Shown: positions 4,193 through 36,297, counted from the first letter of the stretch. The stretch is DNA of 43,464 nt from Candidatus Kaiserbacteria bacterium (GCA_026396675.1 JAPLWI010000010.1:1-43464), one strand, 5' to 3'. A program made the numbers and translations. The notes: generated by a model not told the origin, from the letters alone.

Positions 4193-5515
4193 CTATTTAG
4201 AATAATATTCGCGAACAAAATCCTCGCGATATTCGTCAAAATTCCCGTCAAGAATTGCCTCTCGCGCACCGGCGACGAGATCCAAGATAAATTTCAGATT
4301 GTGCATTGAAGCAATAGTCGCGCCGAGCATCTCACCACTTCGTAAAAGATGCGACATATATGCGCGAGTAAATCCAGATGTGATGGACTTCGTAAATCCA
4401 TCATCAGAGGATGGATTTACGAAGTCCCGACATTCCGAGAGCGGCGTGAAATCGGAGTGATATTTTTCATTTTTTAAATGAATCAAACCGTGCTTTGTGT
4501 AAATAGAACCGTGCCGCCCGAGGCGCGTTGCCGCGACGCAGTCAAAAAGATCCATACCATTCGCAATGCCTTCGAGAATATCTCCTGGCTCGCCGATGCC
4601 GAGAAAGTGCCGCGGCAATTCTTCGGGTAATTCGGCAACTGCTGCTGCAAGTGCGCCGCGCATATCTTCTTTTGAAAATGACCCGCCGATACCGATGCCG
4701 TCGAATCCTAAACGCGAAATCTCGCGTGCTGATTCCCTTCGTAAATCCTCGTGACGACCGCCTTGAACGATGCCAAAAAGTGCCTGTTTTTTATTCGCAT
4801 TAATATTCTGTCGATGCGTCTTCAGAGACCGTTCTGCCCAGCGATGTGTGCGCTCCATTGCTTCGCGTTGATATTCATATGGCTCGGTTGGCGAAGTACA
4901 TTCGTCAAACGCAAAAAATATATCTGCACCGAGTGCATGTTGTATTTCTACCGAGCGTTCCGGCGTGAAGCGGTGTAGTGACCCGTCAAGGTGTGAAGTG
5001 AAAGAAACGCCTTCATCATCAATGATTGCAAGTTGGCCATGTTGACTTGCTACTTCTTCATCAAAAACAGCGAGCCCATGTTTGGACTTCGTAAGTCCAT
5101 CATCAGATGATGGACTTACGAAGTCCTTCACATCATCGCGTGTAAATTTGGAAATGGTTTTGTTAAACGCAGCACCGAGAGAGAATACTTGGAAGCCGCC
5201 GGAGTCGGTCATTGTCGGCCCCCACTCCGCAGAAGCTCCGCGGGGCGAGCCCTTCCAATTCATAAATTTCGCCAAGCCGCCCGCGTTTTTTACAATCTCT
5301 TCGCCCGGCTGAAGATATAGATGATAAGTGTTCGCGAGCACAACTTCAGCGCCGAGCGCCACGAGTTGTTCTGGGAGAATTCCCTTTACGCTTGCTTTGG
5401 TGCCAACAGGAGCGAATGCGGGTGTGTGAATGGCGCCGTGAGGGGTTTCAATGACGCCAGCGCGCGCCCGGCAACCGGGCGCGCGTTGTTCTATTTTAAA
5501 ATTAATCGCTCCCAT
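4193..5515 (-). CDS. tgt: tRNA-guanine transglycosylase carrying three palindrome-derived in-frame inserts
   Basis: TPHG..TP.F.PVGT, LANTYHL, TDSGGFQVFSL, FDEC, FGIVQGG, DLFDC, HNL. Confidence 0.96.
   Translation of the reverse strand: MGAINFKIEQRAPGCRARAGVIETPHGAIHTPAFAPVGTKASVKGILPEQLVALGAEVVLANTYHLYLQPGEEIVKNAGGLAKFMNWKGSPRGASAEWGPTMTDSGGFQVFSLGAAFNKTISKFTRDDVKDFVSPSSDDGLTKSKHGLAVFDEEVASQHGQLAIIDDEGVSFTSHLDGSLHRFTPERSVEIQHALGADIFFAFDECTSPTEPYEYQREAMERTHRWAERSLKTHRQNINANKKQALFGIVQGGRHEDLRRESAREISRLGFDGIGIGGSFSKEDMRGALAAAVAELPEELPRHFLGIGEPGDILEGIANGMDLFDCVAATRLGRHGSIYTKHGLIHLKNEKYHSDFTPLSECRDFVNPSSDDGFTKSITSGFTRAYMSHLLRSGEMLGATIASMHNLKFILDLVAGAREAILDGNFDEYREDFVREYYSK
4385..4427. repeat. family A REP doublet, in frame in tgt
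   Basis: GGACTTCGTAAATCCATC-ATCAGAG-GATGGATTTACGAAGTCC; perfect 18-bp arms. Confidence 0.92.
5084..5126. repeat. family A REP doublet, in frame in tgt
   Basis: GGACTTCGTAAGTCCATCATC-A-GATGATGGACTTACGAAGTCC; perfect 21-bp arms; 40/43 identical to 4385-4427. Confidence 0.92.
5218..5247. repeat. family G palindrome, in frame in tgt
   Basis: GCCCCCACTCCGCAGAAGCTCCGCGGGGCG; encodes extra residues between MNWK and GPTMTDSGG. Confidence 0.65.
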
Positions 5516-5537
5516 CACTCACAACTATGCCCTACAA

Positions 5538-6269
5538 TCAGAGCGTTGTCACTGTTGCAGAAATGCTGTTGTTATTCGTATTTGATTCTGGCGATTGAAG
5601 TTGGCGATTCGGGTCAATGGTGATGGTAATGGTGTGTGTGCCAGGAGTGTTATTGGCGAAGTGTACGATGTACTCGCTCGGCTGACCTGGAGCAAGTGAT
5701 GCTTGTGTGAAGCTCTTATTCGCAGAATTACTGCCAGAAATGTTCATCGCCCATTGTCCAGACACATTCGTACCAACATTTTTCACCAAGAATTTCACCG
5801 CGATTGGAGTGTTCACAGGAATCGTTGTAGCCGAGACGATGGCATTACCAGAACTGTATCCAATGGTTTCTATGATAATCGCAAGATCGGGCGAGCCGTA
5901 GTAATTCTGGATTGCAGGCCCATCGGCAATAGTTATTGAAGTTCCTGGAGTCCAATATTGTTTTGATATTGAAGTTGTCTTCACAGGCGTTGAAGTTGCA
6001 ATTGTTGAATCAGTTGAACTCGCCTCTCCGAAATAAATCACCGACGGCATCGTTGTAGAAACAGTCGGGGCACTGTTTTTAAATGTTGAAGCAAAAACTG
6101 AACCAACATACACTACGGCCGCACCTGTACGATTCACAATAATCGGCACGAAGCGCGTCGAATAGATAGCAAGCCACATACCCGCCACGACAAGCGCGAA
6201 GAAGCCAACAACCGCAAGGCCGTTCACTGCCGTCCGGCGAGGTCGCGAGATGGTTTGAAAGTTATTCAT
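5538..6269 (-). CDS. membrane-anchored protein with C-terminal CARDB/Ig-like domain
   Basis: N-terminal TM, S/T linker, PDL..VKNVGT..IDP..ESNTNNN; alternative start 6290. Confidence 0.8.
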   Translation of the reverse strand: MNNFQTISRPRRTAVNGLAVVGFFALVVAGMWLAIYSTRFVPIIVNRTGAAVVYVGSVFASTFKNSAPTVSTTMPSVIYFGEASSTDSTIATSTPVKTTSISKQYWTPGTSITIADGPAIQNYYGSPDLAIIIETIGYSSGNAIVSATTIPVNTPIAVKFLVKNVGTNVSGQWAMNISGSNSANKSFTQASLAPGQPSEYIVHFANNTPGTHTITITIDPNRQLQSPESNTNNNSISATVTTL

Positions 6270-6318
6270 ATGTGGTGTTATGTTTACCATATTATAATTT
6301 TTATGTCAAGACATTTGA

Positions 6319-8256
6319 TTATGCACCGAGAATCGCGAGTGCTCGGGTGAGAGCGAGCTTCGCGCCCGTCACGCTATCCGAATAACTCGAGTCAATCGCG
6401 GTCGTGAGTGAAGCGACGAGCTTCTCGAGGACTGGTGTCGAGAGTCGTGCCGTTCGACGCGCAATATCGGCATCGCAGGAAGTACCATCAACGCGGGCGC
6501 GATACACATCGTCGAGAGCGAAGACAGCGGCGCTGATTAGTTGTTCAGGTGCACCGCCTCCACGCACCTGTTGTCGAAGTCCTGCGAAGACACCAGCGCG
6601 ATCGCCTTCGATAAGCGCGATGGCAAATCCGCGAATATGCACAGGGACTCCGGTGGTACGCGCTACAGGAATATCCGCAGCAATCGGTTCAACATTTTCA
6701 TATATCGGTTCGACTTCTTCGTACACTGGCTCAACATTCACCTGTACTGGCTCGACATCAAGTATCGGTTCTGCGACGCGTTCGAGAATCGACGAAGAAG
6801 TGCGTTCTTCGTGTGACAAACTCTTCACGATATCTTCTATTGAAAGCGCGCCATTATGAGAGAAGGACTTGAATCCATCATACGAAGAATATCCGCGCGG
6901 CGCTTCGGGTGATTTTTCCACAGGAATCTCAACCGAAGCCGGCGCATGGAATGGAGCCGAATAAGCTGGAGCGCGGACTGGCTCTGGCGCGTTAAGCACC
7001 GCAGAGACACGAGCCATAAAATTGCGCGCGCGGCGATTCACAAACGGCACTGCACCAAAAAGAATCAGGTACGCGAGCGCGAGCGCGAAACAAATAAGCA
7101 CAAGCCAGTACACAATCGTACCAACTGGCCCCAAATCAAGACCAGTGTATGGAATCTGTGACAGCGAGAGATATGCGAGCGGCTGTGCGCCACCTTCAAG
7201 CGTTATGATTGGAATGATTGGATGGCCGCCACCACCACCTCCGCCGCCTCCACCTCCGCCACCACCTCCGCCGCCGGTCACAGTGAGCACGGCAGTACAG
7301 GTAAGTGTCTGCCCATTGGTCGCATGGAATGTACCTGTATAAGTGTATGCTTGTATTGCCGTAGGAGAAACAATTATCGATCCGGGAGTGGTTGTCCCCG
7401 TCGCAATACTGTTATCAATATCAACGGTTCCAATTCCAACACCTCCCCAAGAAAGTGTTGCTGAACCGCCGGTCGTGTAGCTAGCCGGCGAAACATCGAG
7501 CGTACAAGACGGACCGCCGCCTCCACCGCCACCATTTACCGTAACGATGGCTGTGCACTGCACAGAACCTCCAGCGCCGGTAGCAGTGCCTGTGTAAGTA
7601 ACGGTAGAAACTGGCGAGACAGATTTTGTACCGGAAGCGACCGGAGTAACGGAACCGATGCTGTTATCAATTGAAAATGAAGTGGCGTTCTTGGTTGTCC
7701 ACGAAAGTATGGATGAGCCGCCAGTCGTAATAGAAGTCGGATTCGCCACAAGCGTACAGGTAGGGGCTGGTGTAATTACTGGGTAGGTACAAATCACTCC
7801 TGACTGACTCGTCGCTTTCGAGTTGTAATTAATTGCTACTGGATCCATACAGCCGTAGATTACCGGCGGAGGAGGTGTTGGATAGGTGCAAGTCACTCCT
7901 GACTGACTCGTCGCATTTGGATTGTAGTTCGTAGCGGTACTGTCCATACATCCGTACACAATGACTGGAATTATCGGAACTGGAATCACAACTGGAACTG
8001 GCAATGGCTGTGGCGGAACAGGTGGAATCACTGGAGAAACAACTGGCGGAATAACCAGAGGCGGAACAACAGGAATCTCGCAACAAGGCGGGAGAATTGG
8101 GACTGGTGCTGGAACAGGAATATCGCAACATGGCGGCAATACTTGGGCTAAAACTCTAGCGGGTGTGGTAAGACCAGTCGCAAAAGCGATTGACATACCA
8201 AAAATAATCGTAAGAAGTACGGTAAAGAGACCGGTTAGAATCGGTCGTTTGTTCAT
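6319..8256 (-). CDS. putative sortase substrate: Pro-rich region, two GCMD..A.NY repeats, Ig-like modules, poly-Gly, IPYTG, TM, long cytoplasmic tail
   Basis: Signal peptide from MNKR (ATG 8256); SQIPYTG followed by a hydrophobic helix and NRRAR. Confidence 0.85.
   Translation of the reverse strand: MNKRPILTGLFTVLLTIIFGMSIAFATGLTTPARVLAQVLPPCCDIPVPAPVPILPPCCEIPVVPPLVIPPVVSPVIPPVPPQPLPVPVVIPVPIIPVIVYGCMDSTATNYNPNATSQSGVTCTYPTPPPPVIYGCMDPVAINYNSKATSQSGVICTYPVITPAPTCTLVANPTSITTGGSSILSWTTKNATSFSIDNSIGSVTPVASGTKSVSPVSTVTYTGTATGAGGSVQCTAIVTVNGGGGGGGPSCTLDVSPASYTTGGSATLSWGGVGIGTVDIDNSIATGTTTPGSIIVSPTAIQAYTYTGTFHATNGQTLTCTAVLTVTGGGGGGGGGGGGGGGGGHPIIPIITLEGGAQPLAYLSLSQIPYTGLDLGPVGTIVYWLVLICFALALAYLILFGAVPFVNRRARNFMARVSAVLNAPEPVRAPAYSAPFHAPASVEIPVEKSPEAPRGYSSYDGFKSFSHNGALSIEDIVKSLSHEERTSSSILERVAEPILDVEPVQVNVEPVYEEVEPIYENVEPIAADIPVARTTGVPVHIRGFAIALIEGDRAGVFAGLRQQVRGGGAPEQLISAAVFALDDVYRARVDGTSCDADIARRTARLSTPVLEKLVASLTTAIDSSYSDSVTGAKLALTRALAILGA
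7225..7275 (-). repeat. poly-Gly tract (17 GGN codons)
   Basis: Low-complexity (NCC)n on the + strand. Confidence 0.9.
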
Positions 8257-8311
8257 ATATGAGAAAACCTTGTCAAAATTTTTCATTTTCACTGCCACTT
8301 GCGTGGCGTAT

Positions 8312-8365
8312 AAAAAGGGAGTGAGTGTGGCGACTTGTTGAAAATTGCCGTCACACTCTTTTCCC
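8312..8365 (-). terminator. terminator-like hairpin after the 8367-9437 gene
   Basis: Minus strand GGGAAAAGAGTGTGACGGC...GTCGCCACACTCACTCCC-TTTTT. Confidence 0.6.
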
Positions 8366-8366
8366 G

Positions 8367-9437: not shown

Positions 9438-9504
9438 CACTGCCTCCTTTGCCGCTTACAGCGGCTAATTTTTTATTGAAAGAACATCTCTCCTCTTTGC
9501 GGAG

Positions 9505-9544
9505 AGTCACGCGATTCCGTTAATTAAAACGGAATCGCGTGACT
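9505..9544. repeat. perfect 17-bp inverted repeat overlapping the sortase 3' end
   Basis: AGTCACGCGATTCCGTT-AATTAA-AACGGAATCGCGTGACT. Confidence 0.9.
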
Positions 9545-10204: not shown

Positions 10205-10250
10205 ATCGTCTTCTACATACATACAGCATCGTGTCAATTCTGTCAAGCGC

Positions 10251-10279
10251 TTGACAAAATATAGTATATAGAGTATCCT
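10251..10279 (+). promoter_or_regulatory. sigma70-type promoter
   Basis: TTGACA-17 nt-TATCCT; the -35 is part of the palindrome TGTCAAGCGCTTGACA (10241-10256). Confidence 0.7.
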
Positions 10280-10322
10280 CTCAAACAGATGTAAATTTGA
10301 AAACAAAAAGGAGGTCTTTTCG

Positions 10323-10871: not shown

Positions 10872-10884
10872 GGAGAGTACGGAA

Positions 10885-10914
10885 ATGGGCGTCCTTCTAT
10901 GGAGGACGCCCATT
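10885..10914 (+). terminator. intrinsic terminator
   Basis: AATGGGCGTCCTTC-TATG-GAGGACGCCCATT. Confidence 0.75.
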
Positions 10915-10945
10915 ACTATTTTAAGAACAAGGTTTAACCTTGTTT

Positions 10946-11458: not shown

Positions 11459-11465
11459 AGAATAA

Positions 11466-11759: not shown

Positions 11760-11779
11760 AGGTGGCATTGTATCATTTA

Positions 11780-13712: not shown

Positions 13713-16505
13713 TTACTGCGAGAGATAGCGCTCGCGAATCATATTTTCAACAGTAGCACGATCACGACCGTAGGTGAGCGAAGAAAGGTGAATAAGATCG
13801 TCCACCTGCGCCGGATTTGCCGCAGGCAAATCCGGCGTCTTCATATCAAACGCCTTTTGCGGCACACCGGATACGAGGATTTTCACATACGCATTGCGAT
13901 TTTCTATATTAACGAAGTCACTGGCTTCAAAAACCGGTGCGAATTGTTTTGCAAAAAATTCGGCATCTTCTTCGCCGACGCGGAAAATCGCCATATTGCC
14001 GACATTCCCGAAGACGGCATCGCGTGTTTTATCCTGAATTTGCGCGAGGAACTGGTGCGCCATTGAAAGTGCCAATTTATATTTCCGCGCTTCCGAAAGA
14101 ATCCCCGGAATTGAATCGGTTGTCACATTCTGAAATTCGTCGATGTAGAGATAGAACGGCGGATACGACGTCGTGCCCGCCAGCTGGCGGGTGTCAGCGC
14201 GCGACAAGGCCGCCATAAACAACTTCCCGACGACGATAAGCCCAAGTAGGTTCGCGTTTCTTTCACCGAGACGACCTTTGGAGAGATTGATGAGCAAAAT
14301 CTTTTTCGTATCCATCACCTCGCGGAATTTGAATGATGATTCCTGTTGACCGACGATCGGTCGGATGAAATCGTTCGCAGTGAAGTCATCAAATTTGTTG
14401 GTGATGTATGGAACGATATTTTCAAGTGCGGCATCGCCGCCTGCCTTCGTCGCAATTTCATTCCAGAATTGGCTTACAATCGGATTCATGCATTTCTCCA
14501 ATTTCTCGCGGCGGAAATCGCTATTCGCGAGCACGCGTGCGATATCGAGCATTGTCGAACCGCTTGAAGGATCTTCCATCACGAGCAACGTGGCGTTGCG
14601 GAAATATTGTTCGAACGCAGGACCCATACTCTCCGGCACATCGCCATACAAGCGATGAAAGATTGCAAGCAATTCGTTCACGATGAATGTTTTCTGCTCC
14701 GGTCGCGAAAAATCGTACTCCAAGAAATTGAGGCCAAACGGACGCGAGAGGTCAGCCGGATCAAAATAAATGACATCTTTATACCGCTCGGGCGGCACAG
14801 CTGCGAGAATATCCAAAATGTCAGAACCGTGTGGATCAATAAAACAGCATCCTTCGCCGTTTTTAATATCCTGCATAATCATTGATTTCATCAGGCCGGT
14901 TTTACCGGTTCCTGTCTGACCGATGATGTAGAGGTGACGCAGACGATCTTCCGGATCGAGATACACGAGTGTTTCTTGCCCGCGATAATTATTGATGCCG
15001 AGTAACGCGCCTCCGCCAGCTGGCGGATTGCGGAGTTCCAGAGGCGCGGGTGCATGCGTGAAGCGCGCTTGTTTTAGGTGCGGAGAAGATTCAATCCCAG
15101 ACGGTGGAAAATGGTAGAGAGTGGTCAATTCACGAAGCGACAAAGGAAGTGCCGATCTGTCAGGCATACGGAAGGAGAAATCTTCGCACACGAGTGCTGT
15201 CTGCTTGTTATTTGATGTGCGTTCAAATTTCAATTTATTTCCCTGCGTATTCGAGAATTGGTTGAATGCTGATTCTATCTCGCCGAGAACTTGATCTGCC
15301 TTCCGTTCGTCACTGGACGAAACGACGAGTCGGATAGTCGTGCCAACAATTGGCGTCGCGATTTTTTTCTCAACCTGTTCGATATACGCTTTGTTCTCTT
15401 CAACCTGCCGTGTTTCGGCTTCTTTCGCCTTTTGTTCATCTTTCGGTTTGTTTGAAAAAAGTGTGCGGCTGATGTCTCGTGCGAAGTCGCCGAGTGCTGT
15501 TTCTGGAGTGCTGAATGCCGATTGACGCTTTTCACCTTTCCGTAATGCTTGGAGAATTTTTTGGTAATGTTTCGTATACCGTTCATCACGCGGTTCAATA
15601 ATAATCTGCAACGCCGCTCCTTCTCCAGTTTGTTCTATTTTAGCGAAGGCATTTGTAATTGTGTTAATCGGGTCATAATCGAAGTCAGTGTAATCCTTGA
15701 GCGGCAATGAAGGATGTTCAACGAATTTCGCAACTGATACGAGTACAGAACCGGTTGAAGCAAAAATATTGTAATCGGACGGTTGTAACACTAATTCGGC
15801 ATTCGGAAAAATAGCGAGAAGTTGCTTTTCAAAAAGAGAACACTTCCCTTTCGGTATCGCAGCGTAGAACTGAAGTTCTGAAGTATGTGCGGGGACGGCG
15901 AGCTCAAGCGCGAAATAGTTTGGATCGCTACTTGAGGCGTCAGCGACTGAGAGAAGCCCTGAATAAAATTGCTCCATCGCAGAAATAAGTTCCTTCAACG
16001 ACTTCGCGCGCACTTCGCCAGCTGGCGAACGGCTCTTTGGACCCGGAAGTGAGATTTCATACAACGCCATGTGAAGCGCTTGAAACTGTGGTGCTTTCTC
16101 ATCCGCCTCAAGTGCCGGTAATCCGGCTGCAACATACCTTACGAGAAAGCGATGGAAATCGTCAGTAATATGCGGATCGTGCAATTTCTCAAGCACTGAA
16201 AGTGTGTTTTTTATCCCTTTTTCTTCCATTGTTTGTTGGAGGCCTTTAATTGTTTGTTCGCTATCACCGAGATTTAATTCAGCGAGAATCTTCTCGGCAA
16301 TATCATTTATCGCTGGTTCGCTAGCGCGATATTCAGGCGCAAGTATTTCTGGAGAAACAGCGTGGTGTTCATGAATTTGCTCTGAAATAATTTTTACGCG
16401 TTCAAGAGTTCCGGTTTTCGCGATTTCTTTTTCTTTATTCACAACCTGCTCGCGCAAATACGCGAGTTCTTCTTCAGGCGTGGACAACTTAGGTGTGGAT
16501 TCCAT
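13713..16505 (-). CDS. VirD4/TraD-like coupling ATPase (HerA/FtsK superfamily)
   Basis: DRLRHLYIIGQTGTGKT (Walker A), IDPHG, LYIDEFQN (Walker B), LSEARKYKL..AHQ. Confidence 0.92.
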   Translation of the reverse strand: MESTPKLSTPEEELAYLREQVVNKEKEIAKTGTLERVKIISEQIHEHHAVSPEILAPEYRASEPAINDIAEKILAELNLGDSEQTIKGLQQTMEEKGIKNTLSVLEKLHDPHITDDFHRFLVRYVAAGLPALEADEKAPQFQALHMALYEISLPGPKSRSPAGEVRAKSLKELISAMEQFYSGLLSVADASSSDPNYFALELAVPAHTSELQFYAAIPKGKCSLFEKQLLAIFPNAELVLQPSDYNIFASTGSVLVSVAKFVEHPSLPLKDYTDFDYDPINTITNAFAKIEQTGEGAALQIIIEPRDERYTKHYQKILQALRKGEKRQSAFSTPETALGDFARDISRTLFSNKPKDEQKAKEAETRQVEENKAYIEQVEKKIATPIVGTTIRLVVSSSDERKADQVLGEIESAFNQFSNTQGNKLKFERTSNNKQTALVCEDFSFRMPDRSALPLSLRELTTLYHFPPSGIESSPHLKQARFTHAPAPLELRNPPAGGGALLGINNYRGQETLVYLDPEDRLRHLYIIGQTGTGKTGLMKSMIMQDIKNGEGCCFIDPHGSDILDILAAVPPERYKDVIYFDPADLSRPFGLNFLEYDFSRPEQKTFIVNELLAIFHRLYGDVPESMGPAFEQYFRNATLLVMEDPSSGSTMLDIARVLANSDFRREKLEKCMNPIVSQFWNEIATKAGGDAALENIVPYITNKFDDFTANDFIRPIVGQQESSFKFREVMDTKKILLINLSKGRLGERNANLLGLIVVGKLFMAALSRADTRQLAGTTSYPPFYLYIDEFQNVTTDSIPGILSEARKYKLALSMAHQFLAQIQDKTRDAVFGNVGNMAIFRVGEEDAEFFAKQFAPVFEASDFVNIENRNAYVKILVSGVPQKAFDMKTPDLPAANPAQVDDLIHLSSLTYGRDRATVENMIRERYLSQ
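14176..14191. repeat. family D 16-bp palindrome
   Basis: CCCGCCAGCTGGCGGG. Confidence 0.8.
15012..15027. repeat. family D 16-bp palindrome
   Basis: TCCGCCAGCTGGCGGA. Confidence 0.8.
16014..16029. repeat. family D 16-bp palindrome
   Basis: TTCGCCAGCTGGCGAA. Confidence 0.8.
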
Positions 16506-17229: not shown

Positions 17230-17970
17230 TTATACCATCTGCACAATCGCGTAGATCACGAATGCACCGAGAAGCGTCATGATTGTTGTAAGCGCACGAG
17301 GATGTCGGTGGTGACTCTCGGGAATAAGATCGCTTGCCGATAGATAGAGAAATGTACCGACAAAAATGGCGAGCACGAGTCCTATGAATGATTCAGGAAT
17401 GCGAAAGAACAATGTTGAGACAACACCGAGAACTGGAGCTACCGCATCTACAAATAACCACCTGAACGCCTGCCAGCGGCTTCCTTCATTTCGCAGAATA
17501 AAGCTCACGGTATTGATGCCGTCGGAAAAATCGTGCGTCAACACCGCGGTTGTAACGACAATGCCGACAATCGTCGATGCTTGGAAACTGACTCCAATCG
17601 CGATGCCATCAAGAAAGCTATGTGTGGAAAGTGTAAGCGCTCCGAACGCTCCGCGAGATCCACGAGGTGACACCTTACGATTTTCGTAAGGTGTCACCTC
17701 GTGGTCAGTGTGCGTATGTAGAAGAATAAGCCGGTCTAAAATAAGATAGCCGAAAAATCCGAGGGCGATAAATAACGTAACTATTGAAGCATCGTGCCAG
17801 CCATTTCCAAGCTTGATTGCCTCAGGAAGAAGGTCAAAGAGTGCGACGCCGGCGACTGCACCAGCAGAAAATCCTAAAATGAGATGTAACCGATCACGGA
17901 ATCGTAGCGCGAATAAGCCGCCGACTAGAGTCGCGACGAATGCGGCGCAACTAATTAAGACAACGGTCAT
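17230..17970 (-). CDS. ZIP family metal transporter
   Basis: DLLPEA, HSFLDG, HDFSDG, DLIPE; His-containing loop. Confidence 0.92.
   Translation of the reverse strand: MTVVLISCAAFVATLVGGLFALRFRDRLHLILGFSAGAVAGVALFDLLPEAIKLGNGWHDASIVTLFIALGFFGYLILDRLILLHTHTDHEVTPYENRKVSPRGSRGAFGALTLSTHSFLDGIAIGVSFQASTIVGIVVTTAVLTHDFSDGINTVSFILRNEGSRWQAFRWLFVDAVAPVLGVVSTLFFRIPESFIGLVLAIFVGTFLYLSASDLIPESHHRHPRALTTIMTLLGAFVIYAIVQMV
17660..17704. repeat. family B REP doublet, in frame in the ZIP gene
   Basis: CCACGAGGTGACACCTTACGA-TTT-TCGTAAGGTGTCACCTCGTGG; perfect 21-bp arms, 45 bp. Confidence 0.92.
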
Positions 17971-18689
17971 TACTTCAACAATGCATCAATTGCCGTTTGG
18001 AAACTTGCGTATGGATACGCTCCCGCAATTGCCTGCGTACCAATAACGAAAGACGGCGTTGCGTTGATGCCGACTTTAGCAGCTTCGGCTTTGTCGGCGT
18101 CCATCGCTGTTTGGTAGATGCTCATATTTGCTTTTACATCCGCAGCGACTTTTGCTACATCAATGCCAGGAATAGTTGCGGTAAGTTTGTCGATAGACAC
18201 AGCGTTGCCGAAACCCTGATCGCCTTCTTCATCCTGCGCGGTGTACATCGCGGTACGCCACGCGAAATATTTATCAGGATATAGTTTCCAGATTGAGCGG
18301 CTGTAGACAGCACCTATGACTGAATCATTGCCGAGAAATGCAAAATCCATAAAGACGATTTTTACTTTTCCAGTGTCTACATAATTTTTGATAATTTCGG
18401 GGAAAGCTGCTGGTGTAGTTATTTGAGGAATACCGCCAACTTCAAATGCTTTACAAAAAGTGCATTGAAAGTCAGACCAGAACGCAATTGTAACCGGTGC
18501 GTTTGCCTGACCTATAAAAGGATTCCCGTCGATTTTCACATCCGCAATATTTACTTTCGGTGCTGTTGGGGCTTGCCCTGAGCTTGCCGAAGGGTGAGAA
18601 CCGTTCCAAATTACTGCGCCTGCTATAAAAAGTCCAGCGAGTATAACTGCGACTGGTAAAAAGAATTTATTGGTTGTTTCGTTGTTCAT
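17970..18689 (-). CDS. DsbA-like thiol-disulfide oxidoreductase
   Basis: APVTI..WSDFQCTFC, G..ATPSF; N-terminal TM; start MNNETT. Confidence 0.92.
   Translation of the reverse strand: MNNETTNKFFLPVAVILAGLFIAGAVIWNGSHPSASSGQAPTAPKVNIADVKIDGNPFIGQANAPVTIAFWSDFQCTFCKAFEVGGIPQITTPAAFPEIIKNYVDTGKVKIVFMDFAFLGNDSVIGAVYSRSIWKLYPDKYFAWRTAMYTAQDEEGDQGFGNAVSIDKLTATIPGIDVAKVAADVKANMSIYQTAMDADKAEAAKVGINATPSFVIGTQAIAGAYPYASFQTAIDALLK
18571..18595 (-). repeat. family C element, in frame in the DsbA gene
   Basis: Minus strand ACCCTTCGGCAAGCTCAGGGCAAGC. Confidence 0.65.
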
Positions 18690-18721
18690 ATGCAGGAGAT
18701 AGTACCATCTCCAATTGCGAC

Positions 18722-18749
18722 TTGACAAATATGTTGAGTCGTGTATACT
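18722..18749 (+). promoter_or_regulatory. sigma70-type promoter
   Basis: TTGACA-16 nt-TATACT upstream of the GAGGAGG-led ORF. Confidence 0.65.
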
Positions 18750-18785
18750 AATGGTAGAAATCAATTAAGTTCCTGAGGAGGAAAA

Positions 18786-19422: not shown

Positions 19423-19437
19423 GGGTTTACGAAACCC
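19423..19437 (-). repeat. family A single REP, intergenic
   Basis: Minus strand GGGTTT-CGT-AAACCC. Confidence 0.65.
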
Positions 19438-24172: not shown

Positions 24173-25345
24173 TCAATCCACCATGGTTCCGATAGTACTG
24201 TCTTGGCTGACGAACGCAACTGCTCGCGCAAGCGCCTTTCGGAAGCGAACAAACGCACGCGGGCGAATGTCCGGACCCCAAGAAATGCGCAACGTCGCAC
24301 GAGCGCGCGTTGTGTCTCCAGTCAGAGCAAATACCGCACGCGAGCCATTTTCAGAATCGGTCTCGCACGCACTTCGTGTAGAGACCGCGAACTCTTCTTC
24401 ATCAAGAAGCGCAACGATATAGTCAGTGTCTCGGTTCGGTAAGGAAATGTTGAGAATGTTAGAGGATTGGACACGGCCTTCATTTATATATACGGTCGGA
24501 AGTGTATTTTTGATGAACTCAATAAGTTTGATTCGTTCTATCTTCGCACTCGCACAAAATTTCTCCCGGCCGACAACTGCGGCAGAAAGATCAGCTGCAA
24601 AGTTTCGTGCGAGTTCAAACGGTTCGCTACCAGGACGTAATCCCCTTTCTTGTCCGCCGCCGCGGTACAACGGCTCTAGCGGAATGGTTCTATGCGCGAT
24701 GAGTGCGCCGATGCCGCGCGTTGTTCCTACTTTTGAAGAATCAAATGTCAGCATATCCGCGTCAAAATGCGCGCGAGAGATTTTTTCTGTGAGCGGCGCC
24801 TGACTCGCGTCGACGTGCAGAAGAATCCCTCGCTTCGCTCGGGATGGCTCGCGTATGACGCTCGCCACTTCTCTCGTGTTCCATACAGTACCCGTTTCGC
24901 CACATACAGCGTCCATCGAAATAAGAACTGTTTCTTTTCGTATCATTTTTTTCAGTGCTTCAATATTGACGCGATAATTGGCAATTGGCAGTTCTTCTAT
25001 TTCTACTCCTTCTCGCGAAAGTAATTTTATATTTTCAACTACAGATGCGTGTGCACTCGGCAGATACAGGACATGTAACGTGGACTTACGAAGTCCTGAC
25101 ATTCCGAATCCTGATATTAGGGACTTCGTAAGTCCTCGAACCGACCCGAGTATTGCGAGGGCATTTGCTTCGGTCGCACCGCTTGTGAAGATAACGTCAT
25201 CTGGCTGTACTTCAATCAGTCGCGCGATATCTGCACGCGCCCTCTCAAGCTGCTCTCGAGATCTTCGACCTTCCTCGTGCGGTGACGATGTATTTGCACT
25301 CGCACCCGCTGCACGATCGAGATTTATTGGCGTTGTTTTAAACAT
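24173..25345 (-). CDS. cysteine desulfurase (IscS/NifS-like, class V PLP enzyme)
   Basis: FTSGATEAN, HAS, ETGT, HVDASQ, SSK, GGGQERGLRPGS, STRSAC, LRISWG. Confidence 0.92.
   Translation of the reverse strand: MFKTTPINLDRAAGASANTSSPHEEGRRSREQLERARADIARLIEVQPDDVIFTSGATEANALAILGSVRGLTKSLISGFGMSGLRKSTLHVLYLPSAHASVVENIKLLSREGVEIEELPIANYRVNIEALKKMIRKETVLISMDAVCGETGTVWNTREVASVIREPSRAKRGILLHVDASQAPLTEKISRAHFDADMLTFDSSKVGTTRGIGALIAHRTIPLEPLYRGGGQERGLRPGSEPFELARNFAADLSAAVVGREKFCASAKIERIKLIEFIKNTLPTVYINEGRVQSSNILNISLPNRDTDYIVALLDEEEFAVSTRSACETDSENGSRAVFALTGDTTRARATLRISWGPDIRPRAFVRFRKALARAVAFVSQDSTIGTMVD
24825..24845. repeat. family C-like element, in frame in the desulfurase gene
   Basis: ATCCC-TCGCTTCGCTC-GGGAT. 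Confidence 0.6.
25082..25135. repeat. family A REP pair, in frame in the desulfurase gene
   Basis: GGACTTACGAAGTCC (25082-25096), 24-nt spacer, GGACTTCGTAAGTCC (25121-25135); 54 bp. Confidence 0.9.
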
Positions 25346-26841: not shown

Positions 26842-26860
26842 CGCAAGGTGTCACCTTACG
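26842..26860. repeat. family B REP supplying a stop codon
   Basis: CGCAAGGTGTCACCTTACG; contains the TAA of the 26856-27500 gene. Confidence 0.8.
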
Positions 26861-28282: not shown

Positions 28283-29464
28283 ATGGACATTCTCTTTTTG
28301 ATACACATCATCGCACTGCTCTTTTCTTTCTTCGTTATTGGAGCGGTTCTTGGTGCCGTCTTCTCTGAAATCTTCCGACACAAGATTGTCGTAGTCGTGC
28401 GGCGACTTTTGCTCAACAAGTCCGACTCTAATCCAATCTTGAAACCTGGAACCAATGTTTGGGCTGCAGAAGCAGTAATGAATCCGGCTGCTGCTTTTTT
28501 TGATGGTCGCACACATCTTATCTATCGTGCTATCGGTTCTGATGGTGTTTCTCGACTCGGTTATGCGAGCAGTGCCGATGGTATTGTTTTCGACAAACAA
28601 CTTCCCTATCCGGCTTTCGTCGCAACGAGATTGCATCGGTCTCATATGCACAATATTGAACGTAGGTATTCCCTTACACTATATCCATCGGGTGGCAGCT
28701 GGGGTGGTTGTGAAGACCCGCGAATGGTGATGATTGACGGTCGCGTATATGTCACTATCAATATATTTGACGGCTGGAATTTCATTCGCGTCGCGTTCAT
28801 CTCGATTGCAGAAGATGACTTTCTCGCGGAGCAATTCGACAAATGGGAAGGCCCGCATCTTATCTCACCTCCGGGACAAATACATAAAAATTGGGTATTG
28901 TTCCCAGAAAAAATCGGTGGTCGGTTTGCAATTTTGCACAGCATCACACCAAATGTAGAAATTGCTTTCCTCGATGATATTGAAAATGTCGGTATCACCG
29001 AACCATTTGTCGAGAGCTGGGTCGGCGCGCGCGACTGCCTACCGGCGAGAGATGATTCATGGGACAGCTTTGTTCGCGGTGCTGGCCCACCGCCAATTCG
29101 AACAGATCGCGGATGGCTTCTTTTCTATCATGCGATTGATAATCGTGATCCTGGCCGTTATAAACTCGGTGCGATGTTGCTCGATCTCGCTGACCCGACA
29201 AAAGTGCTTTATCGTGCTGCCGCGCCGGTTATTTCTCCCGATGAGTACTACGAAAACGACGGCAAGCCAGGCATTGTCTACGCATGCGGCGCGGTAGTCC
29301 GCACCTCGACTGAGCTCGGGACAGGTGATAAAAAATTGTTCGTTTATTACGGCGGAGCGGACAAGGTCGTCTGCGTCGCGACCTCACCGCTGAACCACTT
29401 CCTTGATGCTCTCGTTGAAGGAAGTCAGGCATCCCTCACAGCAGTGCCAGCGCAAATTGTTTGA
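28283..29464 (+). CDS. GH130-like glycoside phosphorylase/glycosidase with N-terminal TM
   Basis: NPIL, MNPAA, YRA, GCEDPR, KNWVLFP, WLLFYH, VYYGGAD. Confidence 0.92.
   Translation: MDILFLIHIIALLFSFFVIGAVLGAVFSEIFRHKIVVVVRRLLLNKSDSNPILKPGTNVWAAEAVMNPAAAFFDGRTHLIYRAIGSDGVSRLGYASSADGIVFDKQLPYPAFVATRLHRSHMHNIERRYSLTLYPSGGSWGGCEDPRMVMIDGRVYVTINIFDGWNFIRVAFISIAEDDFLAEQFDKWEGPHLISPPGQIHKNWVLFPEKIGGRFAILHSITPNVEIAFLDDIENVGITEPFVESWVGARDCLPARDDSWDSFVRGAGPPPIRTDRGWLLFYHAIDNRDPGRYKLGAMLLDLADPTKVLYRAAAPVISPDEYYENDGKPGIVYACGAVVRTSTELGTGDKKLFVYYGGADKVVCVATSPLNHFLDALVEGSQASLTAVPAQIV
29304..29325 (+). repeat. family C element, in frame
   Basis: CCTCGACTGAGCTCGGGACAGG (TSTELGTG). Confidence 0.65.
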
Positions 29465-30531: not shown

Positions 30532-32511
30532 ATGTTTGTCATTAGACGAGAACCACATAATCCGATACTCGCACCGCTTCAAGAGCGGCCGTGGGAGTCA
30601 GTGGCGACCTATAATCCTTCTGCTGTGCGTACCGAGGATGGCGTGCGGCTGTATTATCGCGCGCTCGGTAATCCGAGCGCGCTTGCGACACCGCTTGCTG
30701 AAATGTCGACTATCGGCACTGCTTTTTCCGAGGACGGTGTCCACTTCCATTCGCGACAACAGATTATTATGCCCAGCGAATCGTGGGATCAATTCGGCTG
30801 TGAAGACCCGCGTGTCACATTTTTTGAAGGTCGTTGGTATTGTTTCTATACTGCACTCGGCGGTTACCCTTTTGGTCCTGACAATATTAAAGTCGCGGTC
30901 GCTATTGGTGACTTGCCAGACAATTTCATCGAGCGACATTTGATTACGCCCTTCGACGCGAAGGCCGCAACAATTTTCCCCGAACGCATCGACGGCGACA
31001 TCGTGATGCTCCTCACCGCGCACACTGACTGGACGCCAGAACATCCGCGGCCGACCATCGCGCTCGCTCGCGCAAAGAAAATCGAGGACTTTTTTGATAC
31101 AAACTATTGGAACGAATGGCACGACCATCTCGCTGACCACGCGCTCGGCGATTTGCGCCGCGATAACGATGTTCACATAGAAGTTGGTGCATCGCCTCTC
31201 TTGACTGACGCGGGCTGGCTGCTCATTTATTCTTACATTCAGGATTATTATGACGAACACAAACGCATCTTCTCGATTGCGGCCGCGCTGCTTGATGCAA
31301 AAAATCCGCAAAATGTTATCTCGCATACCGAATCAATTCTCGTGCCGCAAGAATTTTATGAAGAATATGGTCTCATCCCGCACATCGTATTCCCGACGAG
31401 TGCAACCATCGACCCTTCGACTACGCTCGGGGTAAGCGACCGACTTGAAATATGGTATGGCGGAGCCGACACGGTCTGCGCGAAGGCGAGCGTGAAATTG
31501 CATGACCTCCTGCGCGCGCTTGACCCAAATCGGCCTGCGCGTACCTTCACTCGAGCGCCAGAAAATCCAATTCTTTCGCCGCAAGGCAACGGATTCGAAA
31601 GCCGCGAAGTGATGAACGCCGCAGCGATTGAAATTAACGACTCGATTTATATTCTCTATCGCGCGATGGACGCGGAGAACACCTCTACCGTCGGACTCGC
31701 GATTTCTAAAAACGGCGTCGTTATTGACGAACGATTACCGGAGCCAATTTACACTCCGCGCGCTGATTTTGAAATGAAAAAAGGAAGTCCAACTGGTAAT
31801 TCTGGTTGTGAAGATCCACGCATTGTGCGTATTGAGAATACGCTTTACCTGACTTACACGGCATACGATGGCGTCCATCCGCCATCCGGTGCGGTCTCGT
31901 CAATCAGCGTTGATGATTTTCTCGCGCGGAAATTTGAGAAATGGAGTATGCCACTCATCCTGACACCTGATGGTGTTGATGATAAAGACCTTGCTCTCCT
32001 GCCTGAAAAAATAAACCTGTCCGGTCAGGATGGAAATTATTTGCTTTATCATCGCATTAATAATCAGATTTGTGCCGACCTTCTACCCGACATTGTATCC
32101 GGTAAACGGGCGAGCCGATGTATAGAAATCATGGGCCCGCGACACGGCATGTGGGATGGAGTGAAAGTTGGTGTTGCCGCACCACCGATTAGAGTCGGCC
32201 TGCCCCCTGACCGGGCAGGTGGCCAGGGCGACAAATGGCTAATGATTTATCACGGTGTGTCGCGCCACGCCCGCTACCGCCTAGGCGCCGCGCTTCTCGA
32301 CACTGATGGTCTTACTGTTCTCGCACGTACTGCAGACCCGATTTTTGAGCCACTTGAGAAATACGAGAAAGAAGGAACCGTTCCAGACGTTGTCTTTTCT
32401 TGCGGCGCAGTTGTATGTGGCGATACTTTATATCTCTACTACGGTGCCGCCGATAAAGTGCTCGGCGTTGCGACGGCGTCGCTCGCGCATATTGTTGATT
32501 CCCTTTCATAA
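30532..32511 (+). CDS. tandem double-domain GH130 protein
   Basis: Two NPIL..NP/NAAA..YRA..GCEDPR..YG.AD units. Confidence 0.93.
   Translation: MFVIRREPHNPILAPLQERPWESVATYNPSAVRTEDGVRLYYRALGNPSALATPLAEMSTIGTAFSEDGVHFHSRQQIIMPSESWDQFGCEDPRVTFFEGRWYCFYTALGGYPFGPDNIKVAVAIGDLPDNFIERHLITPFDAKAATIFPERIDGDIVMLLTAHTDWTPEHPRPTIALARAKKIEDFFDTNYWNEWHDHLADHALGDLRRDNDVHIEVGASPLLTDAGWLLIYSYIQDYYDEHKRIFSIAAALLDAKNPQNVISHTESILVPQEFYEEYGLIPHIVFPTSATIDPSTTLGVSDRLEIWYGGADTVCAKASVKLHDLLRALDPNRPARTFTRAPENPILSPQGNGFESREVMNAAAIEINDSIYILYRAMDAENTSTVGLAISKNGVVIDERLPEPIYTPRADFEMKKGSPTGNSGCEDPRIVRIENTLYLTYTAYDGVHPPSGAVSSISVDDFLARKFEKWSMPLILTPDGVDDKDLALLPEKINLSGQDGNYLLYHRINNQICADLLPDIVSGKRASRCIEIMGPRHGMWDGVKVGVAAPPIRVGLPPDRAGGQGDKWLMIYHGVSRHARYRLGAALLDTDGLTVLARTADPIFEPLEKYEKEGTVPDVVFSCGAVVCGDTLYLYYGAADKVLGVATASLAHIVDSLS
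31412..31433 (+). repeat. family C element, in frame
   Basis: ACCCTTCGACTACGCTCGGGGT (PSTTLGV). Confidence 0.7.
32016..32219. repeat. two family E palindromes (32016-32029 and 32199-32219)
   Basis: CCTGTCCGGTCAGG; its reverse complement matches CCTGACCGGGCAGG (32206-32219) at 13/14. Confidence 0.55.
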
Positions 32512-33671: not shown

Positions 33672-33769
33672 ATTGCCTCCTTACTTTTTCTTTTTCTTTT
33701 TTTATATTTTACAGATCTAATCTGAAATTAAGATTAACATATCATCTAGCCAGAGTCAATTTGAAGTTA

Positions 33770-33788
33770 AGCGAAGTCAGACTTCGCT
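33770..33788. repeat. family F palindrome, intergenic
   Basis: AGCGAAGTC-A-GACTTCGCT. Confidence 0.7.
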
Positions 33789-33857
33789 ACTGTTGTGCAA
33801 AAAACTAGATTTTAAGCCATATTTTCATAATCAAAGCTCTATATCTTGTAAAAAAGT

Positions 33858-33880
33858 TGAAAGATTTCGTAAACCTTTCA
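33858..33880 (+). repeat. family A REP, left flank of RAYT
   Basis: TGAAAGATTT-CGT-AAACCTTTCA. Confidence 0.88.
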
Positions 33881-33895
33881 TGTATTATGGAAGGC

Positions 33896-34579
33896 ATGGA
33901 ATTATGGCATGTATTAAATCACGGGGTTGAAGGACGAGACTTATTTCTTGACACACAAGATTACGCGCGTTTTGTGCATAATCTCTACGAATTTAATGAC
34001 TCTGCTCCTGCCGATAATCTTTGGCGCCTCTTTGATCCGTCTGGAATGAAAGATTTCGTAAACCCTTCATTTAGAAAAGCGAGACGGCTGCTAGTGGACA
34101 TTCACGGTTGGGTACTAATGAAGAATCATTATCACCTGCTCCTTTCAGAACGCGCGGAGAACGGAATCAGTTTATTTCTTCGCAAATTGAATGTTGGCTA
34201 TTCGAATTATTTTAATGCACGCTACAAGCGTCGCGGAACTTTATTCCAAGGTCGCACAAAAAAGATTTTGATAGAAAATGAATCGCATTTCTTATACATT
34301 CTTCATTATTTGCATCTTAATCCTCTCGATTATCTTGAGGGTGCCAAGGAATGGCGTCTACGAAACAAGAGTGGAATCAAGAACATGAATGATGCACTGG
34401 AGTATCTCGACTCATATCGCTGGAGCAGCTATCTGGACTATATTGGGAAAAAGAATTTTCCGTCTGTTATTACGACTGCATTTTTTAATAGTTCACTTGG
34501 CGACTACCGCACCTCGCTTAGCGAATATCTTCGCGATGCCGAATACGATAACGACTTCACCAAGCTGATGTTTGAATGA
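33896..34579 (+). mobile_element. REP-associated tyrosine transposase (RAYT/TnpA-REP, HUH Y1 family)
   Basis: HVLNHG..F.D..DY, VLMKNHYHLL (HUH), YFN.RY.R.G.LFQGR, YLHLNP (catalytic Tyr), YRWSSY; TATTAT 7 nt before ATG 33896. Confidence 0.92.
34045..34071 (+). repeat. family A REP inside the RAYT gene
   Basis: AATGAAAGATTT-CGT-AAACCCTTCATT, encodes MKDFVNPSF. Confidence 0.88.
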
Positions 34580-34609
34580 AAGGTTTTGAAAGGTTTACGA
34601 AACCTTTCA
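34577..34609 (-). repeat. family A REP, right flank of RAYT, inverted, with a partial duplicate containing the RAYT stop
   Basis: TGAAAGGTTT + TGAAAGGTTT-ACG-AAACCTTTCA. Confidence 0.88.
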
Positions 34610-34613
34610 TTTT

Positions 34614-34958
34614 TCATTTAGAGCGCATGAGGCGGACTAGGCGGATTGTTTCAAATGAATGGCGGCCACCGAGTGAATGGAAAACGGGCGAGAGGCGATC
34701 GCTCTTTTCATCTGAGAGCGCTTCATGTATTTCGTCAACAACACTAATCGGGACGAGATGTGCGAAGTCAGCGCGCCTTAACTTCCCTATTTCTGACAAC
34801 TCTTCCAAATGCTTTACGATAGTGCTCATTGTCAGTCCACGCGCTTTCGCTGTCTCTTTTAAACTTCTTGTATCGCGCGCGGCTTGAAGCGTTTCTGCAA
34901 GTCGACCAGGAAGTCCGGCGGAGCCGGACTTCCCACTTTCCATCAAACCACGCCCCAC
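34614..34958 (-). CDS. helix-turn-helix domain (RecQ/PIF1 C-terminal HTH type); probable out-of-frame end of the helicase
   Basis: AKARGLT.STI..HLE.L and RL.PVF..L...SF..IRLVR patterns. Confidence 0.7.
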   Translation of the reverse strand: MGRGLMESGKSGSAGLPGRLAETLQAARDTRSLKETAKARGLTMSTIVKHLEELSEIGKLRRADFAHLVPISVVDEIHEALSDEKSDRLSPVFHSLGGRHSFETIRLVRLMRSK

Positions 34959-36297
34959 CCATTGCCTTCACAAACTTCTTCTGCATATCAATTACTTCTG
35001 CCTTCGACATTTCAGCAAACGCATCGCGCGCCGCGTCTGACGCGGCGCGAAAATCCCTGTCCTTCTTCAAAATTTCCGGATGCACTTCGAGCGCGCGTTC
35101 ATTCAATCCAGTGAGATATACCCCGGAGAGCCGCCGCACTCTAGAGAGGGCGACATAGCCCTGTCCATATTCAAACGCCTTTGAGAGATCCATAATCGCG
35201 GCGTCCATACTCATTCCTTGGCTTTTATGCACCGTCATCGCATAGGCGAGCCGGAGCGGAATTTGCGAAATGCTCGCCTTCACTTTTCCTTGTTCTTCAA
35301 GTTGCCACTCCATTGGCTCGGTCGTTATTTTCAAACCATCTTTTGTTTTTATGATGGGCGAACCGTCTGCACCCCATCCACTCACAATACCAAGCGTACC
35401 GTTTACGAACCGCCCTTTGTGGCCCGAAGGTCCCGAGTAAGTCGAGGGGGAGTTTTTTGTGAACATTACCGCCGCGCTTTCTTTCAATTCAAGAATTTCT
35501 GGCGAGAGACATCCGCGCATCAAACCCTCCACGAGCGAATCCTTGCCCTTTGAACTCATATGGAATTTTTTCGCTTTGCCGGAAATCTTTTCAAGCTCTG
35601 CCGCATTGATTCGATCAACGTCGGCATTATGCGAAAAGAGTTTCGGTGCCTCACATTCGTTCGGCATCTCCGACAAGATTACTTGTCTCGATACAAGTTG
35701 TTCGCGATGCACTTCTTCGACCTCGCCCGACCGAATCGCCGAAAGTATGCCGAGAAATTCAGCATCGTCCTGTCTATACTGTTCTGTGAGGTAACAGATA
35801 ATTGGATTCAATTCTCGCCAGACCGGCGATGCGAATGCGAATTCAACATCCTTCGCGCGTGACACTGGCGGTAACTGGAAAAAATCTCCAACTAGAATAA
35901 CTGTGAGCCCGCCGAATGGTTTATCAACGCGTCGCACCTCGCGGCATATTGAATCCGCCATCTCGAATGTTGCCGCGCTAAGCATCGAGATTTCTTCAAT
36001 AATCAGTACCTTCGCTTTCGCAATCCGCTTCGCGATATGTTCTTTACTCGCGATTCGGTCCACATCAGCTCTCGTGAGCGAATCACTAACGCCGATGCCA
36101 CTCCACGAGTGAAGCGTCATACCGCTAACATGCGTCGCCGCGATGCCAGTCGCTGCAGTTACCGAGGGTTCAATTCCAGAGGCACGCAACCATGCGATAA
36201 ATTCATTTATCGTGTGCGTTTTCCCACTTCCGGGTTCACCGGTAAGGAAAACGTTGGCGCCCGTTTTTAATATTGTAAGCGCCTCGCTTTGTGTCAT
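34768..36297 (-). CDS. PIF1-family helicase, frameshifted near 34905-34960
   Basis: NVFLTGEPGSGKT, TLHSW.G, EEISML, PFGG..VGDFFQLPPV, QIPLRLAYAMTVHKSQGMS, GQGYVALSR. Confidence 0.93.
   Translation of the reverse strand: MTQSEALTILKTGANVFLTGEPGSGKTHTINEFIAWLRASGIEPSVTAATGIAATHVSGMTLHSWSGIGVSDSLTRADVDRIASKEHIAKRIAKAKVLIIEEISMLSAATFEMADSICREVRRVDKPFGGLTVILVGDFFQLPPVSRAKDVEFAFASPVWRELNPIICYLTEQYRQDDAEFLGILSAIRSGEVEEVHREQLVSRQVILSEMPNECEAPKLFSHNADVDRINAAELEKISGKAKKFHMSSKGKDSLVEGLMRGCLSPEILELKESAAVMFTKNSPSTYSGPSGHKGRFVNGTLGIVSGWGADGSPIIKTKDGLKITTEPMEWQLEEQGKVKASISQIPLRLAYAMTVHKSQGMSMDAAIMDLSKAFEYGQGYVALSRVRRLSGVYLTGLNERALEVHPEILKKDRDFRAASDAARDAFAEMSKAEVIDMQKKFVKAMGGAWFDGKWEVRLRRTSWSTCRNASSRARYKKFKRDSESAWTDNEHYRKAFGRVVRNREVKAR
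34909..34933. repeat. family F-like hairpin at the helicase frameshift
   Basis: GGAAGTCCGGC-GGA-GCCGGACTTCC. Confidence 0.8.
35421..35450 (-). repeat. family C element, in frame in PIF1
   Basis: Minus strand CCCCCTCGACTTACTCGGGACCTTCGGGCC (PSTYSGPSG). Confidence 0.6.

Follow-up and report, generated by a model that had tools for sequence, protein, structure and literature searches.

Palindromic insertions in the genes of a Candidatus Kaiserbacteria contig and their probable origin as REP elements of RAYT-type transposases

Why should the genes of a small and tightly packed bacterial genome carry palindromes inside their reading frames? This question is raised by a contig of a Candidatus Kaiserbacteria bacterium (GCA_026396675.1 JAPLWI010000010.1:1-43464), which we analyzed over its whole length of 43,464 nt (43.5 kb) and call the window; it is contig C17 of a 30-contig, 640-kb genome (G000). 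Gene packing in the window is tight, and open reading frames (ORFs) make up ~87% of the genome by a crude ORF call. An earlier note, made from the DNA sequence alone, had claimed about 17 palindrome-derived segments of seven families within nine genes at positions 4193 to 36297. Our analysis indicates that the long elements (families A, B, D and E, with F elsewhere) are very probably repetitive extragenic palindromic (REP) hairpins, or their doublets (REPINs), of a Patescibacteria-specific branch of the REP/RAYT systems, moved by cognate RAYT transposases and surviving in permissive loops.

The first point is whether the repeats exceed chance. An unbiased 12-mer census was made over 598 kb of the genome, using contigs with GC content below 0.52, and the most repeated words were pieces of families A (16–17 copies), C (11–14 copies) and B (11 copies). 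Five other contigs of this assembly (C3, C9, C25, C26 and C27) have a GC content of 0.54–0.65 against ~0.46 elsewhere and may belong to another organism. Exact copies in the genome number 20 units for family A, 17 for B and 11 for C, and 4–8 for each of E, F and I. The window itself holds 15 perfect hairpins with stems of at least 10 bp, compared with ~0.4 expected (43464 × 9 × 4^-10). The families are genuine repeats, in numbers far beyond chance expectation.

Family A is a 15-nt hairpin, GGACTT-CGT-AAGTCC, usually found as an inverted doublet with a 43-nt core, or 57 nt including the outer stem; 11 such pairs occur genome-wide with identities of 90–98%. Family B (AAGGTG-A/T-CACCTT) forms a 45-nt doublet of two inverted hairpins, and both the A cores and the B unit have the REPIN arrangement. 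Family D is a variant of family A. Family C is a 16-nt palindrome without a loop (core CGCCAGCTGGCG). A 14-nt dyad that occurs in 8 copies, compared with 0.0 in shuffles, defines family J. For family G, a strict pattern gave 0 matches and a relaxed search 5 in this genome, of which 4 were convincing. Copy number is repetitive in the REP sense, though low compared with classical REPs (~10 per family). The GTAG or CGTC tetranucleotide at the REP end was absent in the copies read; conserved instead are a CGT/ACG loop and the closing T-A pairs.

The elements were folded as single-stranded DNA and compared with shuffles. Strong hairpins were obtained for the two doublets in the tgt gene (z = −10.65 and −8.56), the doublet in the ZIP transporter gene (−12.47), the pair in the desulfurase-like gene (−6.62) and the palindrome at 34909 in the PIF1-like helicase gene (−5.49), and the values for family C were −1.5 to −2.8. 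Thus, a palindromic origin is well founded for families A, B and C and plausible for family J. It was not borne out for family G, for an insertion at aa 90 of tgt or for one in the DsbA-like gene, which are real insertions without a hairpin fold; the label "palindrome-derived" therefore suits only part of the segments.

Where do the copies lie? A copy was called intragenic if it was at least 15 codons inside an ORF of at least 120 aa. By this definition, 16 of the 20 family A units and 8 of the 11 family C copies are inside ORFs, so these families are mostly intragenic and not predominantly extragenic. Intergenic copies had also been claimed, and most of them were found: an A/D-type REP between convergent genes (19423..19437), a family E REP (33770..33788) and three family B REPs (43112..43200). 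The copy proposed near 321 amounts to no more than a weak hairpin in the 30 nt that separate tRNA-Val from tRNA-Pro; a search of Rfam gave nothing beyond four tRNAs at the gathering threshold. A further family B REP (26842..26860) overlies the stop codon of the gene at 26856–27500.

We then asked whether the intragenic segments are insertions. Orthologues were taken from up to 30 genomes of the genus, plus some of the same order, and 14 window proteins were aligned with 3–30 orthologue rows each. A run of at least 3 residues that was gapped in at least 60% of the orthologue rows was taken as an insertion run, and the DNA was not inspected beforehand; the boundaries of insertions are approximate in variable loops. 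The scan returned 15 runs in 8 of the genes named in the earlier note and none in six control genes (VTT, 19443, ClpB, 23374, PMM and FKBP). A hairpin score of at least 7 was reached by 6 of the 15 runs; among control windows drawn from the same genes the figure was 2.2% (binomial, 4e-7). The orthologues have insertions of their own: the 14 alignments contain 65 that are specific to orthologues, and 13 of these score at least 7.

The earlier count of 17 segments was reproduced gene by gene: three in tgt, three in the VirD4-like gene, one in ZIP, one in the DsbA-like gene, two in the desulfurase-like gene, one in the first GH130 gene, three in the double GH130 gene, one in the RAYT gene and two in the PIF1-like gene. 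The check proposed with it, that alignment gaps should coincide with the elements, came out in its favor, as 15 segments match gaps in the alignments with orthologues from sister genomes.

The long elements are found in three of these genes. The tgt gene (4193–5518, − strand) carries two family A REP doublets, which with the aa 90 insertion make up its runs. One doublet, made of two inverted 15-nt hairpins, lies at ~aa 129–147 (5078..5134, −), where at least 26 of the 30 orthologue rows have a gap; the other lies at ~aa 362–381 in a former zinc-motif loop (4377..4433, −), also at an orthologue gap. Family A was found at either site in none of the 30 orthologue rows. The ZIP transporter gene (17230–17970, −) has a 45-nt family B doublet with a 21-bp stem (17660..17704, −), a net gain of 9 codons between hydrophobic segments 3 and 4. 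In the class-V aminotransferase (desulfurase-like) gene (24173–25345, −), two outward-facing family A units (25082-96 and 25121-35) stand 24 nt apart in a variable loop (25082..25135, −), and the spacer between them is the run detected there.

The shorter elements add a few codons each. The VirD4/HerA-like ATPase gene (13713–16505, −) contains three family C palindromes. Two are the runs of this gene and are 4-codon insertions, at aa 494–497 (15012..15027) and aa 775–778 (14176..14191), and the third is a net change of +2 codons at aa 160–164 (16014..16029). Two of the three are shared with G006, one of them (codon 775) in decayed form and the other (codon 494) intact, and the copy at codon 494 is also shared, decayed, with G009. 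The double GH130 gene (30532–32511, +) has three runs. Two belong to family J and occur only in this genome: a 14-nt dyad CCTGNCCGGNCAGG in a 5-codon insertion (32016..32029, +) and a 30-nt insertion holding a family J unit (32197..32226, +). The third is a family G insertion (31420..31437, +), which is also present in G014. It occupies the turn homologous to that of the single run in the first GH130 gene (GH130a, 28283–29464, +), an 8-aa family G insertion without a hairpin (29303..29326, +) common to G005 and G014. At the G014 GH130 locus (L110; 1334, 2381 and 3344), a family G unit is found at the homologous turn of all three GH130 domains, which could reflect independent insertion or conversion between the paralogous domains.

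The remaining runs lie in three genes. In tgt, a 10-aa insertion at aa 90–99 (5222..5251, −; fold z = −0.03) is common to G010, G024 and G009, and G011 has another palindrome at this site. The DsbA-like thioredoxin gene (17970–18764, −) gave two runs, including a non-palindromic 9-aa insertion (18408..18434, −; fold z = +0.37) shared with G024, G014 and G008. The run in the PIF1-like helicase gene (34768–36297, −) is a 9-aa insertion, family G-like and not a hairpin (35419..35445, −), absent from 24 of 24 orthologue rows. The second PIF1 segment is an 11-bp-stem palindrome in a linker (34909..34933, −), at the frameshift of this assembly.

The reading frames of the long elements are informative. 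Of the three frames on either strand, only one is open in the 57-nt A unit, and the same holds for the 45-nt B unit. The host genes use that frame, and all five intragenic 43-nt family A cores are read in the same one. It might be argued that the elements are cut from the transcript or the protein and add no peptide. This is highly improbable: removal before translation would need neither the use of the only open frame nor the keeping of the host frame, and both were observed.

The positions of the insertions in the proteins were then compared with structural context. In the AlphaFold model of TGT (mean predicted local distance difference test score, pLDDT, 82.6; predicted template modeling score, pTM, 0.83), the only segments with pLDDT below 50 are residues 113–161 and 368–376, which hold the two family A doublets, and the aa 90 insertion is modeled as coil. 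Compared with the TGT of Zymomonas, site 1 is in a lineage-specific extra segment and site 2 is inside the zinc motif. This CxCxxC motif is gone from all orthologues of the genus at tgt codons ~355–388 (window 4377–4460), and it is kept in Zymomonas TGT and in TGTs of other families of the order. In the VirD4-like protein, family C insertions stand 35 residues ahead of Walker A and 7 ahead of Walker B (the copy at aa 775–778). Judged from alignment context, the insertions in the GH130 genes probably sit in loops as well. Survival as loop insertions where intergenic DNA is scarce, as had been proposed, is thus upheld by the orthologue gaps, by the low pLDDT or coil at the TGT sites, by the ZIP site between hydrophobic segments, by the VirD4-like sites outside Walker A and Walker B and by the ~87% of the genome in ORFs. 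The elements would in this way supply new peptide.

The same TGT loops are occupied by other palindromes in other species, with stems of 15, 24 and 8 bp at site 1 and of 28, 17, 9 and 7 bp at site 2; at site 2, five of the six orthologues with increased length have a stem of at least 7 bp. Such refilled loops may reflect a small number of insertion-tolerant sites or a preference of the elements for existing hairpins.

Is there an enzyme that could move the hairpins? A RAYT-type Y1/HUH transposase gene lies in the window (33887..34579, +). It has the HUH and Tyr motifs and reaches 23.8 bits for Pfam Y1_Tnp against a cut-off of 23. Family D REPs stand on its 5′ side (33858..33880) and its 3′ side (34587..34609), and a degenerate REP copy lies in frame inside it (34047..34073, +). 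The genome has five IS200-like (RAYT-type) paralogues, on C17, C16, C23, C29 and C18. Those of C17 and C16 are 75% identical and both have family D hairpins, and the C16, C23 and C18 genes are flanked on both sides by families D, F and E, respectively. The suggestion that several REP-like families coexist is therefore supported, since each of the five paralogues stands beside its own hairpin family. A single ORF of ~408–451 aa elsewhere in the genome (C13:6272-7627) contains three families, with C at 6642, D at 6797 and F at 7035.

The association was also found in other genomes. Among 61 genomes searched for motifs and RAYTs, relatives of the RAYT occur in 37, with up to 10 per genome, and the family A motif occurs in 20. 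Family A hairpins lie before, inside and after a RAYT of the subfamily in G005 and G019, where the loci were read, and family A REPs flank such a gene in G023 and G045 by coordinates. We surveyed 58 related loci with full flanks from records named Kaiserbacteria or Paceibacterota. Matching 5′ and 3′ hairpins were found in 38 of them. In 35, a hairpin within the gene (at +133 to +161 nt) has a 9-mer in common with at least one flank, and in 26 with both. Because the internal hairpin matches the flanks in related loci, the segment inside the RAYT gene is a conserved part of the RAYT clade and not a fresh insertion. One of the 17 segments is hence present and in frame as had been noted, and it is not recent. 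The whole 864-nt cassette of RAYT and hairpins (33760–34623) is missing in contigs of two comparison assemblies, X1 and X3, which have six other letters instead; the cassette is variable between close strains.

The short family C is dispersed in a similar manner. Its core is found in 15 of the 61 genomes, with 47 matches against 10 for the reversed control. An exact 16-mer is common to 40 copies in these 15 genomes with unrelated flanks; of the two positions that flank it, one is T in 72 of 80 cases and the other is C in 67 of 80, and there is no conservation further out. Most copies read as PPAGG. At one locus (L174, G062:C1:36667-36692), two tandem units lie 2 nt apart in an open frame. The sole RAYT neighbor of family C is in G052, where a copy lies 35 nt past the 3′ REP; the REPs of that gene belong to another family, and it was rejected as the cognate enzyme.

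Several results weigh against the origin of the segments as mobile REP elements. Five palindromic candidates inside genes were rejected as insertions or elements, as no change in length relative to orthologues was found: a GC-rich palindrome in tgt codons 12–20 (5461..5485, −), a 13-bp-stem palindrome in the VirD4-like gene (13809..13837, −), a 10-bp-stem palindrome in the double GH130 gene that is identical in G011 only (30659..30682, +), a perfect palindrome in conserved PIF1 codons (35027..35049, −) and a 12-nt partial match to family A in conserved tgt codons (EDLRRES; 4730–4748). Families J and G, the tgt aa 90 and DsbA insertions and the internal copy of the window RAYT show no fold advantage over shuffles. 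A cognate RAYT was found for none of families C, J and G. The window RAYT scores 37.9 bits against NCBIfam REP_Tyr_transpos (equivalog), below the cut-off of 80, and solved RAYT structures gave no sequence match at E ≤ 1, only chance-level ones; by these scores it belongs to a distant branch. For the C29 RAYT, family B hairpins were found on the 5′ side and not on the 3′ side. Counts of the family A motif and close members of the RAYT subfamily are mismatched in G011, G024 and G066, which have 4–9 motif hits but best RAYT E-values of only 6e-26 to 2.6e-20. Neither a target-site duplication, which together with terminal inverted repeats would mark a MITE, nor a conserved target was seen in codon-level views, in which the boundaries of these wholly palindromic elements are uncertain. 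Moreover, counts across sister genomes are not independent, owing to kinship.

Some of these palindromes could be explained by synthesis in place. Under such an explanation, template switching or snap-back synthesis (quasi-palindrome correction, inverted codon duplication) would make palindromes in situ and no mobile element would be involved. The singleton perfect palindromes without length change (13809-37, 30659-82, 35027-49 and 5461-85), whose orthologues have imperfect forms, fit it. The perfected form at 30659-82 recurs identically in G011, although G011 is not the nearest relative; conserved GLPG codons make up the right arm of the PIF1 palindrome at 34909; and the ancestral sequence was already half-site-like at two of the three family C sites. 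It fails, however, for near-identical units of 43–57 nt at 10 or more unrelated loci, for a 16-mer found unchanged at 40 loci of 15 genomes whose flanks are unrelated to one another, and for the same hairpins flanking RAYT genes. We give it a lesser but real chance as the source of the segments, and we prefer movement as REP elements for the long families.

Conserved hairpins within genes suggest another possibility, in which the hairpins or dyads persist for their function as a DNA or RNA signal, such as a protein site or a pause or processing site, and the peptide is a by-product. The palindrome at PIF1 35027-49 is kept in ~14 species, and third codon positions change on both sides. Its covariation is 0.161, compared with 0.074 ± 0.016 after shuffling (0 of 500 reach 0.161) and 0.045–0.099 in slid controls, so that pairing is kept. 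At tgt codons 11–21, at least seven species have differing GC palindromes of 10–12 bp, with centers that shift by one base between species, and none was found in other families of the order. In RAYT genes, the internal REP varies jointly with the flanking REPs in 35 of the 58 loci, and the exact 16-bp dyad of family C has the form that dimeric proteins bind. Against a signal, nearly all orthologues have no element at the sites of families A and B, and the same loops have unrelated palindromes elsewhere; shared copies of family C decay (codon 775 in G006, codon 494 in G009), and its core is missing from 46 of 61 genomes. A signal role is quite unlikely as the general explanation. For the conserved in-gene hairpins themselves, either selection or arms kept matched by self-templated repair would account for the pairing.

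Because the genome is a metagenome bin, the segments might also be assembly artefacts, that is, palindromic chimeras or collapsed repeats. Assemblies of six runs from two studies were compared, each with at least 81% of the sampled words; one run may be the source of the window itself. At 34933–34937, beside the 34909 palindrome, 26 additional letters are present in contigs of X1, X2 and X6 (X3 has no contig there), and these letters restore the frame of the PIF1 C-terminal domain that is out of frame in the window. Because three other covering assemblies carry these letters, the frame break belongs to this assembly or to a rare variant, and it was rejected as a biological effect of the element. 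The earlier statement that all segments but one keep the frame is accurate for the elements in frame, and its exception comes down to an assembly-specific deficit of 26 nt. Contigs of this genome and of the comparison runs often end at palindromes, and the assembly seems to break there; the contig ends C8/C23 and C18/C29 are reverse-complement repeats of each other at a family C and a family J unit. In contrast, seven elements (those of ZIP and desulfurase, four in GH130 genes, and PIF1-35419) are crossed with 0 gaps by contigs of four runs from the two studies, including an X2 contig for the ZIP doublet, and sister genomes that were assembled independently have related elements at these or at other sites. 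An artefact is extremely improbable as the origin of the segments.

The preferred explanation, movement by RAYTs, can be put as follows. Each RAYT-type Y1/HUH enzyme would recognize its own hairpin, whose stem differs by lineage and whose apex (T-CGT-A) is conserved for the most part. The enzyme would move the units as single-stranded DNA, by analogy with IS200/IS605 and TnpA-REP. Most landings would fall in genes, because the genome is ~87% coding, and copies with a stop codon or hitting a structured part would be lost. The remaining copies, readable in their sole open frame in either orientation as the elements are palindromic, would persist in permissive loops, be translated as 4–19 extra residues and then decay. 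We infer catalysis by the RAYTs, translation of the insertions and their near-neutrality from these patterns. Families C (16 nt), J (14 nt) and G appear to behave alike, as dispersed in-frame insertions for which no cognate enzyme was found.

Two observations in the window stand apart from the families. A palindrome with a 17-bp stem and an AT-rich loop (9505–9544), of single copy in the genome, overlaps the 3′ end of a sortase gene. The 8-kb block between tgt and the VirD4-like gene (5538–13708) holds CARDB, sortase, FKBP and unknown surface-type genes; in G017 the two genes are, by their coordinates, ~850 nt apart, which leaves no space for it.

How do these elements compare with known systems? 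The account of Di Nocera, De Gregorio and Rocco (2013; PMC3733652) describes intragenic REPs tagged with GTAG or CGTC in Opitutus, Rickettsia and others, often in the form of inverted dimers, which add ~20–30 residues, sometimes twice per gene, and RAYT genes flanked by the same REPs. The hairpins, dimers and RAYT flanks are alike here. However, the tagged REPs are mostly extragenic, whereas families A and C are mostly intragenic and have a conserved T-CGT-A apex and no tag; the lineage is Patescibacteria, with up to 10 RAYT paralogues in genomes of 0.5–1 Mb. The Rickettsia palindromic elements are presented in PMC10969869 as palindromic repeats of ~150 bp that interrupt unrelated housekeeping genes of a small genome without breaking the frame, are regarded as compatible with the protein fold and have no known transposase. 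In-frame insertion into unrelated conserved genes was found here too. In contrast with their size of ~100–150 bp, the present elements have 12–57 nt, the longer ones have cognate RAYT genes, and several families occupy the same loop in different species. In the REPIN–RAYT systems, as outlined by Bertels and Rainey (2011; PMC3116915) and Nunvar (2010; PMC2817692), RAYTs are typically single-copy and the repeated unit is an inverted REP doublet, with each family tied to the Y1/HUH gene that it flanks. Inverted doublets and a REP-flanked Y1/HUH gene are likewise present here. The differences are five paralogues in 640 kb, a third REP in frame within the RAYT gene, a cassette that is present or absent between strains, and ~10 copies per family compared with hundreds.

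Among the papers listed in our literature searches, none reports REP/RAYT systems in Patescibacteria. Compared with the described systems, the elements here are denser and lie mostly inside genes, more families and RAYTs coexist, loops are refilled, and some palindromes are of codon scale. A bolder proposal is that hairpins are a main source of new loop sequence in the core proteins of Paceibacteria-type members of the Candidate Phyla Radiation (CPR) and are maintained in genes, in keeping with refilled loops, covarying pairing and RAYT-internal hairpins, and that the loopless palindromes of 16 and 14 nt form a separate undescribed class of mobile micro-insertion without its own transposase. 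We regard this proposal as speculative and rather unlikely.

Intragenic insertion of palindromes is known from Rickettsia and a few other bacteria, and here it occurs at high density in a group for which we found no earlier description. The elements affect annotation, alignment, structure prediction and assembly, as seen in the breaks at palindromes and the apparent frameshift. They offer a datable source of lineage-specific indels in CPR proteins, and the ~five RAYT/hairpin pairs in 640 kb form a compact natural system for the study of hairpin recognition by RAYTs. For the organism, the finding shows selfish DNA persisting where non-coding space is nearly nil, in the loops of essential proteins.

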